From: a virus
Lineage: Duplodnaviria > Heunggongvirae > Uroviricota > Caudoviricetes
Reading direction: 5' to 3' (one strand)
DNA length: 3,875 nt
Virus record (IMG/VR): IMGVR_UViG_2667527839_000009
Coordinates: 1-3,875 of that record
Of this stretch, positions 1 through 3,875 are shown one piece after another. The notes below the pieces were generated by a model, which made no database searches, had not been told where the DNA came from, and saw nothing but the letters and a program-made list of their open reading frames with translations. Made by a program: the position numbers and the translations under genes. The stretch's first letter is position 1, and every line of letters starts with the position of its first letter.

Positions 1-672
1 ATGAAACAAATGTCACTAATTGAGATGGATGGATTTCTGAAAGGAAAATGCATCCCGCGAGACTTAAAGGTTAACGAAACAAACGCTGAATATCTGGTGC
101 GTAAATTTGGTGAGCTTGAATCAAAGATTGCATTACTTGAAGTGCAATTAAAGCTATCGGAAGCAGCAGAAAGAGCATGGGAGTCATCAATGATGCAGGC
201 TTGCGGCGAAGACGGGCCGAAATCAGTGGCTGATAAGTTTGCCGAACTTGAAGCCAAGTGCGCGGCGCTAGCAACTGATAACAAGAAAGCAATGGAGGCA
301 ATGAGGCAGGCAGATGCAGCCGTTAAGTTGGCACACGAGAAGTTTTCGGCGCTGGCGGCGGAGAATGCGATGTTGAAGCAACGGACACAGCAACTTATCG
401 ACATCATTAGTAATACTGACAATGACTACTGCATGTGTGGTTCTGCTATGAAAGACCACGTGCACAGCGGATGTGGTTATCCTACTGGCATGTTCGATTA
501 TTACTACAACCAGTGGCTGGAGTCAGATAACAAAACCCCAGCCACCGACGCTTTCCTGGCTGAAGTCCGGGCGCAGGGCGTGGAGATGTTTGCGGAGTGT
601 GCATACACACTTGAACATCATGATCACGCAGTAGCCTTCGCCGCTGAGCTTCGCAAAGGAGGCAACCAGTGA
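1..672 (+). CDS. Hypothetical phage protein: N-terminal coiled coil plus Cys/His-rich C-terminal domain, possibly Ea22-like; may be 5'-partial because the ORF begins at window base 1
   Basis: 223-codon ORF ending at TGA 670-672. Residues ~35-135 are heptad-like and Ala/Glu/Lys/Leu-rich (ELESKIALLEVQLKLSEAAERAW...AENAMLKQRTQQLIDII). The C-terminal part carries C144, C146, H153, H155, C158 (nt ~430-474) and C200, H206, H207, H209. An AGGAGG for the next gene lies inside its 3' end, consistent with an operon. The start cannot be verified because the frame is open to the window edge. Confidence 0.7.
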   Translation: MKQMSLIEMDGFLKGKCIPRDLKVNETNAEYLVRKFGELESKIALLEVQLKLSEAAERAWESSMMQACGEDGPKSVADKFAELEAKCAALATDNKKAMEAMRQADAAVKLAHEKFSALAAENAMLKQRTQQLIDIISNTDNDYCMCGSAMKDHVHSGCGYPTGMFDYYYNQWLESDNKTPATDAFLAEVRAQGVEMFAECAYTLEHHDHAVAFAAELRKGGNQ

Positions 673-968
673 GTGTATATCTTATTGATAAACGTCGACG
701 TGGGCAACAAATACCATCTGTAGGAATTCCGAATCACACATGGTTTTGCGTACTTGATATCGATGGTATGGATGCGTTGGTTGACACTCGTCATTACTGC
801 GATACCGCAACAGCTACTCCGGCGAAAGCAAAGAAAATGGCTGCTCTGATAGAAAACTGGACTCCACCTGATGGTTGGTGCAATGGGAATGATCGAGATT
901 GGCATGAAAAAATGAAGGGCTATATCTGCGATTTCTTACGTAAATGCAACGGCTTCAGGGTGATGTGA
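669..968 (+). CDS. Small hypothetical phage protein, Cys-rich (99 aa), GTG start
   Basis: GTG at 669-671 overlaps the upstream TGA stop (GTGA, 669-672). A consensus Shine-Dalgarno AGGAGG at 657-662 sits 6 nt upstream. The protein has Cys at 27, 44, 71, 87, 93 and His at 23, 42, 79. It occupies the position that ea8.5-type small genes hold in lambdoid phages, but I do not recognise its sequence. Confidence 0.65.
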   Translation: MSVYLIDKRRRGQQIPSVGIPNHTWFCVLDIDGMDALVDTRHYCDTATATPAKAKKMAALIENWTPPDGWCNGNDRDWHEKMKGYICDFLRKCNGFRVM

Positions 969-969
969 T

Positions 970-1380
970 ATGACCAAAATTAACTATCAGGCGCTGCGTG
1001 AAAAGGCAGAGAAAGCAACGAGTGGTGTGTGGTCGCTCGAATATGGAGAGGAGAGATTTGATGCTGGTGATGCGCTAATTCATCGTGAAGTTGTTGGATA
1101 TCTTCCCATTTGCAGAATTGAAGGAGCGTATCCTGAAAGCGGTTTCGATGAAGATTTCCAAATGGAACAGCAGGCCAATGCTGAATTCATCGCTGCAGCC
1201 AATCCGGCTACTGTGCTGGCACTGTTGGATGAACGGGAAAGAAACCAGCAATACATCAAACGCCGCGACCAGGAGAACGAGGATATTGCGCTTACGGTTG
1301 GGAGGCTGCGCGTTGAGCTGGAAGCCAAAGACCGGAGGATTGCTGAGCTGGAAATAAGCACTATGGCCCTGAGAGGATAA
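970..1380 (+). CDS. ead/Ea22-like family phage protein (136 aa)
   Basis: ATG at 970 lies 1 nt after the upstream stop (966-968). The N-terminus MTKINYQALREKAEKAT... and the motif ANAEFIAAANPATVLALLDERE match what I recall of ead/Ea22-like prophage proteins. A short C-terminal coiled-coil segment follows (RLRVELEAKDRRIAELE). The assignment is from memory, not from a search. Confidence 0.75.
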   Translation: MTKINYQALREKAEKATSGVWSLEYGEERFDAGDALIHREVVGYLPICRIEGAYPESGFDEDFQMEQQANAEFIAAANPATVLALLDERERNQQYIKRRDQENEDIALTVGRLRVELEAKDRRIAELEISTMALRG

Positions 1381-1383
1381 CCC

Positions 1384-2301
1384 ATGAGCACTATGACCAA
1401 ACAATGGCTGAAGCGGAAAATTGCAGAAATGGAAGCTGCCCGCGATGAAATCCCGTTCGGCCTGGACGAAGACGACAGCAATACACTTTCGGCGCTGCGT
1501 ATCGCGCTGGCATCGCTCGAAGCGGAGCCTGTGATTACCGTTGGCGATGATGGTGGTGATGCGCTTGCTTATCGCCGTCTTATTCAAACGTTCGCACCAG
1601 GAACGAAGCTATACACCGCCCCGTCAGCGCCAGAAAATGCTGACCCCGTAGCCTGGCTGTGGTCACACAGAAAACACCCTAGCGAAGTTACGCTTGTTCG
1701 TCCTGAAGATGACGAAAAAGCAGAAGCAGCTCTGTGGTCTGGATGGAGTTGTCAGGCGCTTTATGCAGCCTCTCCAGCGCCGGTATCTGTGCCCGCTGCG
1801 ATGGAAATGGATGATGACTTTGACAGCGCGTTTGAACACGGAAAAGCTGTCGGCTGGAACGCCTATCGCGCCGCCATGCTTCAGGCCGAACCTGTAAGTA
1901 ATAGTTATGAGTTACCGCTGGACTATCTGCAAGGACACAAAGACGGCCTGGAGTGGGCTGCACAATTGGCAGAAGCCAATCATCCGCAAACAGGTGACTG
2001 GTTGTACGACGACCCAATCGATCTTGCCAGGGCGATTCGCAAAGGTCCGGATATGCCTACTGTTCAGGGTGGCAATTCTCCGGTAACTCCGGATGGTTGG
2101 ATAAGCTGTAGTGAGCAGATGCCTTCCGCAGGGGAACAAGTGTTGGCGTACCGTCCAGACGCGCCGGAAAGTAATGATCCATTAATCAAGATGGCAACGT
2201 ACGTTGGCGGGTCAGCACACGGACACGGCTTTGATTGCTACTGCAAGCCAACCCACTGGATGCCGCTGCCAGCAGCACCGCAGGAGGTGAACCGTGGCTA
2301 A
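1384..2301 (+). CDS. DUF551-like phage protein (305 aa), acidic and Ala/Pro-rich, with conserved C-terminal ...THWMPLPAAP motif
   Basis: ATG at 1384 follows the upstream TAA (1378-1380) by 3 nt, with GAGAGGA at 1371-1377 as RBS. The C-terminal ~70 residues (PDGWISCSEQMP...VLAYR...THWMPLPAAPQE) resemble the DUF551 domain common in enterobacterial prophage early regions. The N-terminal two-thirds are rich in Asp/Glu/Ala/Pro. Stop is TAA at 2299-2301. Confidence 0.75.
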   Translation: MSTMTKQWLKRKIAEMEAARDEIPFGLDEDDSNTLSALRIALASLEAEPVITVGDDGGDALAYRRLIQTFAPGTKLYTAPSAPENADPVAWLWSHRKHPSEVTLVRPEDDEKAEAALWSGWSCQALYAASPAPVSVPAAMEMDDDFDSAFEHGKAVGWNAYRAAMLQAEPVSNSYELPLDYLQGHKDGLEWAAQLAEANHPQTGDWLYDDPIDLARAIRKGPDMPTVQGGNSPVTPDGWISCSEQMPSAGEQVLAYRPDAPESNDPLIKMATYVGGSAHGHGFDCYCKPTHWMPLPAAPQEVNRG

Positions 2302-2401
2302 CCTGCAACTTGCCGTCAAAGGTGAATAACAATCCTCGCATTCGCGGGGATTTCTTTTATCTGAACTCGCTACGGCGGGTTTTGTTTTATGGAGATGATA
2401 A

Positions 2402-2569
2402 ATGCACTTTCGAGTCACAGGTGAATGGAATGGAGAACCATTCAACAGAGTTATCGAAGCGGAGAACATCAACGACTGCTATGACCACTGGATGATATGG
2501 GCGCAGATAGCGCATGCAGACGTAACCAATATTCGAATTGAAGAACTGAAAGAACACCAAGCCGCCTGA
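2402..2569 (+). CDS. Small hypothetical phage protein (55 aa), not present in the supplied ORF track
   Basis: My own translation of ATG 2402 to TGA 2567-2569 gives MHFRVTGEWNGEPFNRVIEAENINDCYDHWMIWAQIAHADVTNIRIEELKEHQAA. GGAG at 2391-2394 lies 7 nt upstream of the ATG. The stop sits inside the stem of a terminator-like hairpin. The sequence reads like a compact globular protein, whereas the overlapping 86-aa ORF at 2235..2495 in another frame lacks an RBS and is low-complexity. Confidence 0.55.
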   Translation: MHFRVTGEWNGEPFNRVIEAENINDCYDHWMIWAQIAHADVTNIRIEELKEHQAA

Positions 2570-2581
2570 TGGCGGTTTTTT
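2559..2581 (+). terminator. Putative rho-independent terminator (GC stem, tetraloop, T-tract)
   Basis: CCGCC (2562-2566) pairs with GGCGG (2571-2575) around loop TGAT (2567-2570). The stem can extend through G2561-T2576 wobble and two A-T pairs. A run of six T (2576-2581) follows immediately. Confidence 0.45.
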
Positions 2582-2582
2582 C

Positions 2583-2622
2583 TTGCGTGTAATTGCGGAG
2601 ACTTTGCGATGTACTTAACACT
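2583..2622 (+). promoter_or_regulatory. pI-like cII-activated promoter: cII site TTGC-N6-TTGC straddling the -35 region, with the transcript start expected just inside xis
   Basis: TTGC at 2583-2586 and TTGC at 2593-2596 are separated by exactly 6 nt (GTGTAA), the architecture of lambda cII sites at pRE, pI and paQ. This is the only such pair I found in the window. By analogy with lambda pI, the start would fall a few nt past the xis ATG (2609), giving an int-only message. The -10 element and start site are not resolved from sequence. Confidence 0.6.
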
Positions 2623-2827
2623 TCAGGAGTGGAACGCACGCCAGCGGCGCCCAAGAAGCCTTGAAACAGTTCGTCGATGGGTACGCGAGTGCAGGATATT
2701 CCCTCCTCCGGTTAAGGATGGAAGAGAGTATCTGTTCCACGAATCAGCGGTAAAGGTTGACTTAAATCGACCAGTAACAGGTAGCCTTTTGAAGAGGATC
2801 AGAAATGGGAAGAAGGCGAAGTCATGA
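2609..2827 (+). CDS. xis: Excisionase Xis (lambda-type, 72 aa)
   Basis: The translation MYLTLQEWNARQRRPRSLETVRRWVRECRIFPPPVKDGREYLFHESAVKVDLNRPVTGSLLKRIRNGKKAKS matches lambda Xis as I recall it. GGAG at 2597-2600 lies 8 nt upstream of the ATG. Its 3' end overlaps int by 23 nt, as in lambda. Confidence 0.95.
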   Translation: MYLTLQEWNARQRRPRSLETVRRWVRECRIFPPPVKDGREYLFHESAVKVDLNRPVTGSLLKRIRNGKKAKS

Positions 2828-3875
2828 GCGCCGGGATTTACCCCCTAACCTTTATATAAGAAACAATGGATATTACTGCTACAGGGACCCAAGGACGGGT
2901 AAAGAGTTCGGATTAGGCAGAGACAGGAGGATAGCAATTACTGAAGCAATACAGGCAAACATTGAGTTATTTTCAGGACACAAACACAAGCCTCTGACAG
3001 CAAGAATCAACAGTGATAATTCTGTTACGTTACATTCATGGCTTGATCGCTACGAAAAAATCCTGGCCAGCAGAGGAATCAAGCAGAAGACACTCATAAA
3101 TTACATGAGCAAAATTAAAGCAATAAGGAGGGGTCTGCCTGATGCTCCACTTGAAGACATCACCACAAAAGAAATTGCGGCAATGCTCAATGGATACATA
3201 GACGAGGGCAAGGCGGCATCAGCCAAGTTAATCAGATCAACACTGAGCGATGCATTCCGAGAGGCAATAGCTGAAGGCCATATAACAACAAACCCGGTCG
3301 CTGCCACTCGCGCAGCAAAATCAGAGGTAAGGAGATCAAGACTTACGGCTGACGAATACCTGAAAATTTATCAAGCAGCAGAATCATCACCATGTTGGCT
3401 CAGACTTGCAATGGAACTGGCTGTTGTTACCGGGCAGCGAGTTGGGGATTTATGCGAAATGAAATGGTCTGATATCGTAGATGGATATCTTTATGTCGAG
3501 CAAAGCAAAACAGGCGTAAAAATTGCCATCCCTACAACATTGCATGTTGATGCTCTCGGGATATCAATGAAGGAAACACTTGATAAATGCAAAGAGATTC
3601 TTGGCGGAGAAACCATAATTGCATCTACTCGTCGTGAACCGCTTTCATCCGGCACAGTATCAAGGTATTTTATGCGCGCACGAAAAGCATCAGGTCTTTC
3701 CTTCGAAGGGGATCCGCCTACCTTTCACGAGTTGCGCAGTTTGTCTGCAAGACTCTATGAGAAGCAGATAAGCGATAAATTTGCTCAACATCTTCTCGGG
3801 CATAAGTCGGACACCATGGCATCACAGTATCGTGATGACAGAGGCAGGGAGTGGGACAAAATTGAAATCAAATAA
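2805..3875 (+). CDS. int: Tyrosine site-specific integrase Int (lambda-type, 356 aa), full length
   Basis: The translation matches lambda Int essentially along its whole length: the N-terminal arm-binding region (MGRRRSHERRDLPPNLYIRNNGYYCYRDPRTGKEF...), the motif HELRSLSARLY, and LLGHKSDTMASQY with the catalytic Tyr at residue 342 (codon 3828-3830, TAT). GAGGA at 2794-2798 precedes the ATG. Stop TAA at 3873-3875 is the last codon of the window. Confidence 0.97.
   Translation: MGRRRSHERRDLPPNLYIRNNGYYCYRDPRTGKEFGLGRDRRIAITEAIQANIELFSGHKHKPLTARINSDNSVTLHSWLDRYEKILASRGIKQKTLINYMSKIKAIRRGLPDAPLEDITTKEIAAMLNGYIDEGKAASAKLIRSTLSDAFREAIAEGHITTNPVAATRAAKSEVRRSRLTADEYLKIYQAAESSPCWLRLAMELAVVTGQRVGDLCEMKWSDIVDGYLYVEQSKTGVKIAIPTTLHVDALGISMKETLDKCKEILGGETIIASTRREPLSSGTVSRYFMRARKASGLSFEGDPPTFHELRSLSARLYEKQISDKFAQHLLGHKSDTMASQYRDDRGREWDKIEIK

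Follow-up and report, generated by a model that had tools for sequence, protein, structure and literature searches.

A terminator-like hairpin matching lambda t'I abuts a cII-type promoter where xis begins in a Caudoviricetes sequence

Genes and features of the orf55-xis-int region

The window, by which we mean the whole stretch of DNA analysed, comprises 3,875 nucleotides of a Caudoviricetes record (IMG/VR IMGVR_UViG_2667527839_000009, positions 1 to 3,875). All of its substantial open reading frames lie on the + strand. The features of its right part that bear on the junction between orf55 and xis are as follows.

2331..2361, + strand: terminator-like hairpin, homologue of tL4 (-12.6 kcal/mol, z -4.84)
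2363..2390, + strand: second terminator-like hairpin, in tandem with tL4 (-10.6 kcal/mol, z -4.73)
2402..2569, + strand: orf55 homologue, 55 aa (lambda hypothetical protein lambdap35; ORF55 of phage 434)
2559..2582, + strand: intrinsic terminator, homologue of t'I (stem 2559-2566 / 2571-2578; loop TGAT, 2567-2570)
2583..2596, + strand: cII-binding repeat TTGC-N6-TTGC of pI (TTGC at 2583-2586 and 2593-2596, 6 nt between)
2610..2615, + strand: putative pI -10 element TGTACT, with a predicted start near T2622 (geometry read from the sequence)
2609..2827, + strand: xis, excisionase, 72 aa (Pfam Exc PF07825, E = 3.9e-41)
2805..3875, + strand: int, lambda-type tyrosine integrase, 356 aa (Pfam Phage_integrase and Arm-DNA-bind_1; alignment to lambda)

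The window Xis is 99% identical to lambda Xis, and the start of int overlaps the end of xis by 23 nt. A GGAG at 2597-2600, within the pI spacer, is plausibly the Shine-Dalgarno sequence of xis. ORF55 is annotated in the phage 434 record M60848, and the orf55 of the window aligns to its lambda counterpart without gaps; a Pfam search returned no family for its product.

Positions 2326-3875 of the window align to lambda (J02459, 29361-27812) without gaps and with 36 differences in 1,550 bases, an identity of 97.7%. The 5' end of the window falls within accessory genes, and N, nutL, cII and sib lie outside it. The genes within 1-2301 encode a 223-aa protein with no Pfam match, a DUF7739 protein, an Ead/Ea22-like protein and a 305-aa DUF551 protein. 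Among the phage and E. coli records that we searched, none covers more than 63% of the window, and nowhere is the gene set of 1-2301 found together. The window reads as a mosaic with a lambda-like right part.

The tandem hairpins at 2331-2390 sit between the DUF551 gene and orf55 and, together with t'I, make three terminators within 250 nt upstream of xis. The second of them (2363-2390) lies directly before the ribosome-binding region of orf55 and is unnamed in the 434 and HK022 records; tL4 itself is annotated in the HK022 record X51962. Both have counterparts among the terminators that ARNold predicts in lambda, the hairpin at window 2331-2352 being t3_lambda and that at 2363-2382 being t4_lambda (PMC4195576 Table 4).

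A stable hairpin and T-run end one base before the cII box

On the + strand, 2559-2578 can form an 8-pair hairpin, AAGCCGCC-TGAT-GGCGGTTT, with a 4-nt loop and a stem of five G-C pairs, one G-U pair and two A-U pairs. It is picked up by a consensus scan of that strand for terminators. Six T residues occupy 2576-2581 and are followed by C2582; the first three of them double as the base of the stem, and the run lies on the coding strand of all substantial open reading frames in the window. A preliminary description of the window had placed a hairpin with a T-tract ending at 2581, and the first TTGC of a cII site from 2583, at the start of xis, and these coordinates are right. We also considered a bidirectional terminator and ruled it out, since on the - strand the hairpin is followed by CTTGGTGTTC, which holds no T-run.

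Folded alone, the 2559-2578 hairpin has a free energy of -12.5 kcal/mol, compared with -3.5 +/- 2.1 kcal/mol for dinucleotide shuffles (z = -4.35), and none of 200 shuffles folded as well. A folding energy and a terminator predictor were the two computational checks that the preliminary description had proposed, and both had in effect already been published: in the analysis of lambda with ARNold by Bloch et al. (2014), the identical sequence AAGAACACCAAGCCGCCTGATGGCGGTTTTTTCTTGCGTG is the predicted terminator t5_lambda, which Erpin and RNAmotif each call, with -11.2 kcal/mol (PMC4195576 Table 4). The core of the stem is short, at five G-C pairs, and the A-U and G-U pairs outside it are in competition with the U-run. 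A scan of the entire window against Rfam (E <= 1) returned nothing at 2559-2625 and two sub-threshold chance matches elsewhere. The window as a whole has six terminator-like sites where 3.5 +/- 2.2 would be expected, so that their total is not unusual.

The TGA stop codon of orf55 (2567-2569) forms the first three bases of the t'I loop. A ribosome ending orf55 would occlude the 5' arm and a large part of the hairpin, and tightly coupled translation of orf55 could in this way suppress t'I and leak a little N-independent transcription into xis-int, so that the element would work as an attenuator sensitive to translation and not as an invariable stop. We think this unlikely. The overlap of stop codon and loop is specific to the lambda-type junction: the upstream reading frame ends about 60 nt before the hairpin in 434 and about 55 nt before it in Salmonella phage 29485.

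The cII box and the putative pI promoter

Immediately beyond the T-run, the two TTGC repeats of 2583-2596 flank a weak -35 hexamer, GTGTAA (2587-2592), which matches TTGACA at three of six positions. Separated from it by a 17-bp spacer is TGTACT (2610-2615), a four-of-six match to TATAAT that begins 1 nt past the A of the xis ATG. This geometry would put the transcript start near T2622, 13 nt inside xis, in agreement with the U start of lambda pI at about 29065. RNA from about 2622 would have no xis start codon and would be expected to encode Int only. The preliminary description had proposed a cII-type promoter 3' of the hairpin that gives an int-biased transcript from inside xis; the geometry fits pI, and the sequence corresponds to the pI region of lambda itself.

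TTGC-N6-TTGC occurs only once in the window, at 2583-2596. At least one such match was present in 71 of 200 shuffles, and the motif match is by itself not significant. Because neither this match nor the number of terminator-like sites stands out against shuffled sequence, the case that the hairpin and the cII box are real rests on homology and conservation. A generic sigma-70 scan of the window did not call pI, as is expected of an activator-dependent promoter.

A third TTGC is present at 2604 and forms TTGC-N7-TTGC with the second repeat (2593-2607). This arrangement overlaps the GGAG at 2597-2600, the putative ribosome-binding site of xis, and its equivalent is named 'pseudo-CII site' in the complete 434 genome record OL657226.

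The junction is that of lambda and is annotated in public phage records

Across 2513-2616 the window has no differences from lambda. The hairpin corresponds to lambda 29128-29109, the cII box to 29104-29091 and the xis ATG to 29078; the terminator as a whole (2559-2582) is identical to lambda 29128-29105. An A in place of G at 2617 is the sole difference from lambda within 2513-2646, and so also within 2559-2625, the interval that the preliminary description had singled out.

For xis the A at 2617, which lies at about -5 of pI, is a synonymous change, and HK022 has it too. Each of the two alleles is common, with TACTTGAC found in lambda and 434, and TACTTAAC in HK022 and in the Salmonella and Cedecea types described below.

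The arrangement is also annotated in related phages. The phage 434 record M60848 has a feature 'terminator t'-I' 24 nt before xis, which falls in register with window 2559-2584 when the two are aligned, and it places a 'terminator t-L4' ahead of ORF55. In the complete 434 genome (OL657226), a terminator (PMID 6305007), a 'pI promoter; CII-controlled', a CII binding site and a pI -35 signal are contiguous, and the pI promoter feature covers the equivalent of 2583-2614. The same cII site is annotated in the HK629 record. That the hairpin acts as a terminator, which had been put forward from the sequence in the preliminary description, is therefore already an annotation of the homologous site in M60848 and OL657226, besides being what ARNold predicts for the identical lambda sequence. 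An integrase promoter and a T'I terminator in lambda and 434 were reportedly described by Benedik, Mascarenhas and Campbell in 1983.

As far as comparison of sequences can tell, the junction in the window is lambda's own arrangement of orf55, hairpin, pI and xis, the same sequence rather than an analogue, and the 2559-2582 element is evidently the t'I of the phage records, placed where the non-essential exo-xis (ea/orf55) block ends and adjoining pI. The placement of the hairpin before pI is already known, as an annotated t'I and pI in public phage records.

The hairpin is retained before pI in lambda-type Xis loci

Searching viral contigs, phage records and genomes, we gathered loci that have a pI core or encode a lambda-type Xis, and extracted the sequence 5' of the cII box. 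The 230 Xis loci obtained reduce to 22 distinct upstream sequences. In all 22 of these versions the cII box is preceded by a G+C hairpin with a run of 4-7 T, and in 21 of the 22 the T-run stops 1 or 2 nt short of the first TTGC. In the remaining type, represented by L175 and comprising 7 IMG/VR loci, the hairpin, AAAGGAGC-TTCG-GCTCCTTTTTT, stands back from the cII box by about 30 nt; direct abutment of terminator and cII box is therefore usual but not obligatory. In L175 (921-945 and 975-988) the cII box reads TTGCGAGTAATTGC and the upstream gene is a different one, a 219-aa open reading frame.

The stems differ in sequence in ways that keep them paired. Base pairs were counted variant by variant, as MAFFT left stems of unequal loop length out of register. 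The stem is closed at its apex by C-G in lambda but by A-U in 434 and HK022, and its basal pair, G-U in lambda, is G-C in those two phages. Within the 434-type stem, one locus (L111) has U-A in place of C-G. The Salmonella-phage type, whose xis is 78% identical, forms a CCAGC/GCUGG stem with a 5-nt loop and shows a change from C-G to A-U, and Cedecea colo and locus L168 have a GGCUGC/GCAGCC stem with a 6-nt loop. All the stem variants fold much more stably than shuffles of the same sequence (z -3.5 to -5.3).

These comparisons bear on whether the hairpin has any function at all. It could have arisen by chance, or could do no more than stabilise the 3' end of a processed upstream mRNA, and the total of terminator-like matches in the window, which falls within shuffle expectation, would be in keeping with that. 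Set against this are the failure of any of the 200 shuffles to fold as well, covariation across diverged Escherichia and Salmonella phages and a Cedecea prophage, and the agreement of two independent predictors with curated records in calling a terminator. We regard a hairpin of this kind as extremely unlikely.

A hairpin is kept before pI with any of several genes upstream: orf55, ORF114, the Salmonella or Cedecea modules, or the 219-aa open reading frame of the L175 type. HK629 retains no more than the final ~45 nt of orf55 beside its hairpin. This remnant implies that the hairpin travels with pI and not with a gene. The pattern as a whole looks like that of an RNA structure under selection and tied to the pI/xis module.

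These observations weigh on a simpler account, in which the hairpin is a mere end-of-gene terminator of orf55 or the accessory module, and its adjacency to pI reflects compactness and shared ancestry with no role in int or xis expression. Such an account would sit well with the stop codon of orf55 inside the loop, with the two further terminator-like hairpins just upstream, which indicate that terminators are frequent in the region, and with the 30 nt between hairpin and cII box in L175-type loci. It does not lead one to expect a hairpin before pI regardless of the upstream gene, nor its retention in HK629 beside so little of orf55, and we consider it improbable. It also largely overlaps the explanation that we prefer, as either way transcription ends before xis.

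A different possibility is that the T-run or the inverted repeat acts as DNA and is part of the promoter, either as an UP-like contact for the alpha subunit of RNA polymerase or as a protein site that aids cII at pI. The proximal subsites of UP elements lie around -46 to -41. Given a start at 2622, the T6 run falls at about -46 to -41, and in 21 of the 22 variants the T-run is directly beside the cII box. However, at lambda pRE, which is the cII promoter that has been studied best, neither a T-run nor an A-run precedes the TTGC repeats, the L175-type loci have no T-run adjoining the cII box, and the compensatory changes in the stem keep pairing rather than sequence, which points to RNA structure. 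We judge a role of this kind very unlikely, and an UP element as the main account of the T-run was dropped in view of pRE. Since the boxes of pRE and of the L175-type loci both do without an adjacent T-run, the run is best read as the U-tract of a terminator.

Some of the loci that encode Xis relatives call for separate comment. A search of genome contigs for such relatives gave 24 loci; unrelated taxa account for 22, most of these on short or low-coverage contigs. The Xis sequences in assemblies of Shewanella, Chromatium, Pseudomonas, Oceanobacillus, Kitasatospora and others (L129-L147, L149-L151) are 96-100% identical to that of lambda, and these copies look like contamination with lambda control DNA. 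Plausible native hosts among the 24 contig loci are Escherichia sp. and Cedecea colo only, and the Cedecea locus is the one that we examined.

Salmonella phages 29485 and SF6 (L126 and L127, 1527-2793 in each) carry a lambda-type xis with the hairpin and cII box. In both, a gene annotated 'mobile element protein' follows about 200 nt after xis, in place of a lambda-type int.

Discussion

We consider it very probable that the hairpin is an intrinsic terminator that halts unmodified leftward transcription before xis-int, and that cII activates pI to start an int-only RNA about 13 nt into xis. In vivo termination, N-dependent read-through and cII dependence are here carried over from established lambda biology. 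On this model, unmodified polymerase arriving from upstream would copy the G+C stem and U6 tract into RNA and release before xis, and stray transcription of the accessory region would thereby make neither Xis nor Int. Polymerase from pL that has been modified by N would read through t'I and produce a xis-int mRNA for excision, in line with the preliminary description, in which early-left read-through into xis-int would need antitermination. cII bound to TTGC-N6-TTGC (2583-2596) would recruit polymerase to the weak pI just 3' of the terminator, and the resulting RNA from near 2622 would encode Int alone and serve integration.

As a discovery this carries little weight: what has been re-derived from sequence is the classical integration-excision control region of lambda, and nothing in the t'I/pI arrangement of the window departs from the known lambda system. 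The window can now be annotated with confidence for orf55, t'I, pI with its cII site, xis, int and, upstream, tL4. The survey adds support for selection of the hairpin as an RNA structure in the lambda-type Xis modules of Escherichia, Salmonella and Cedecea.

Several known systems share parts of this arrangement. Insulating terminators of other mobile elements, such as Tn916, are described as keeping outside or unmodified transcription out of element genes, together with processive antitermination (PMC11658703); element and sequence are unrelated there, and the likeness is one of analogy only. Among cII-dependent promoters, lambda pRE resembles pI in that its TTGC-N6-TTGC straddles a weak -35, and differs in that no terminator lies immediately upstream of its cII box. 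Both pRE and paQ are, like pI, embedded in coding sequence; our sequence comparison covered pRE. The tL4 of 434 and HK022, with its window copy at 2331-2361, is likewise an intrinsic-terminator-like hairpin of the same leftward operon. Unlike t'I, it precedes orf55 rather than pI, and it is followed by the second tandem hairpin (2363-2390).

The closest counterpart is the t'I and pI of lambda and 434. Upstream, the window differs from lambda in that genes for DUF7739, Ead/Ea22-like and DUF551 proteins replace lambda's ea22 and ea8.5. At the junction, the order orf55, hairpin, T-run, cII box, xis ATG and int is that of both phages, and the sequence is that of lambda 29128-29070 save for the one base at 2617.
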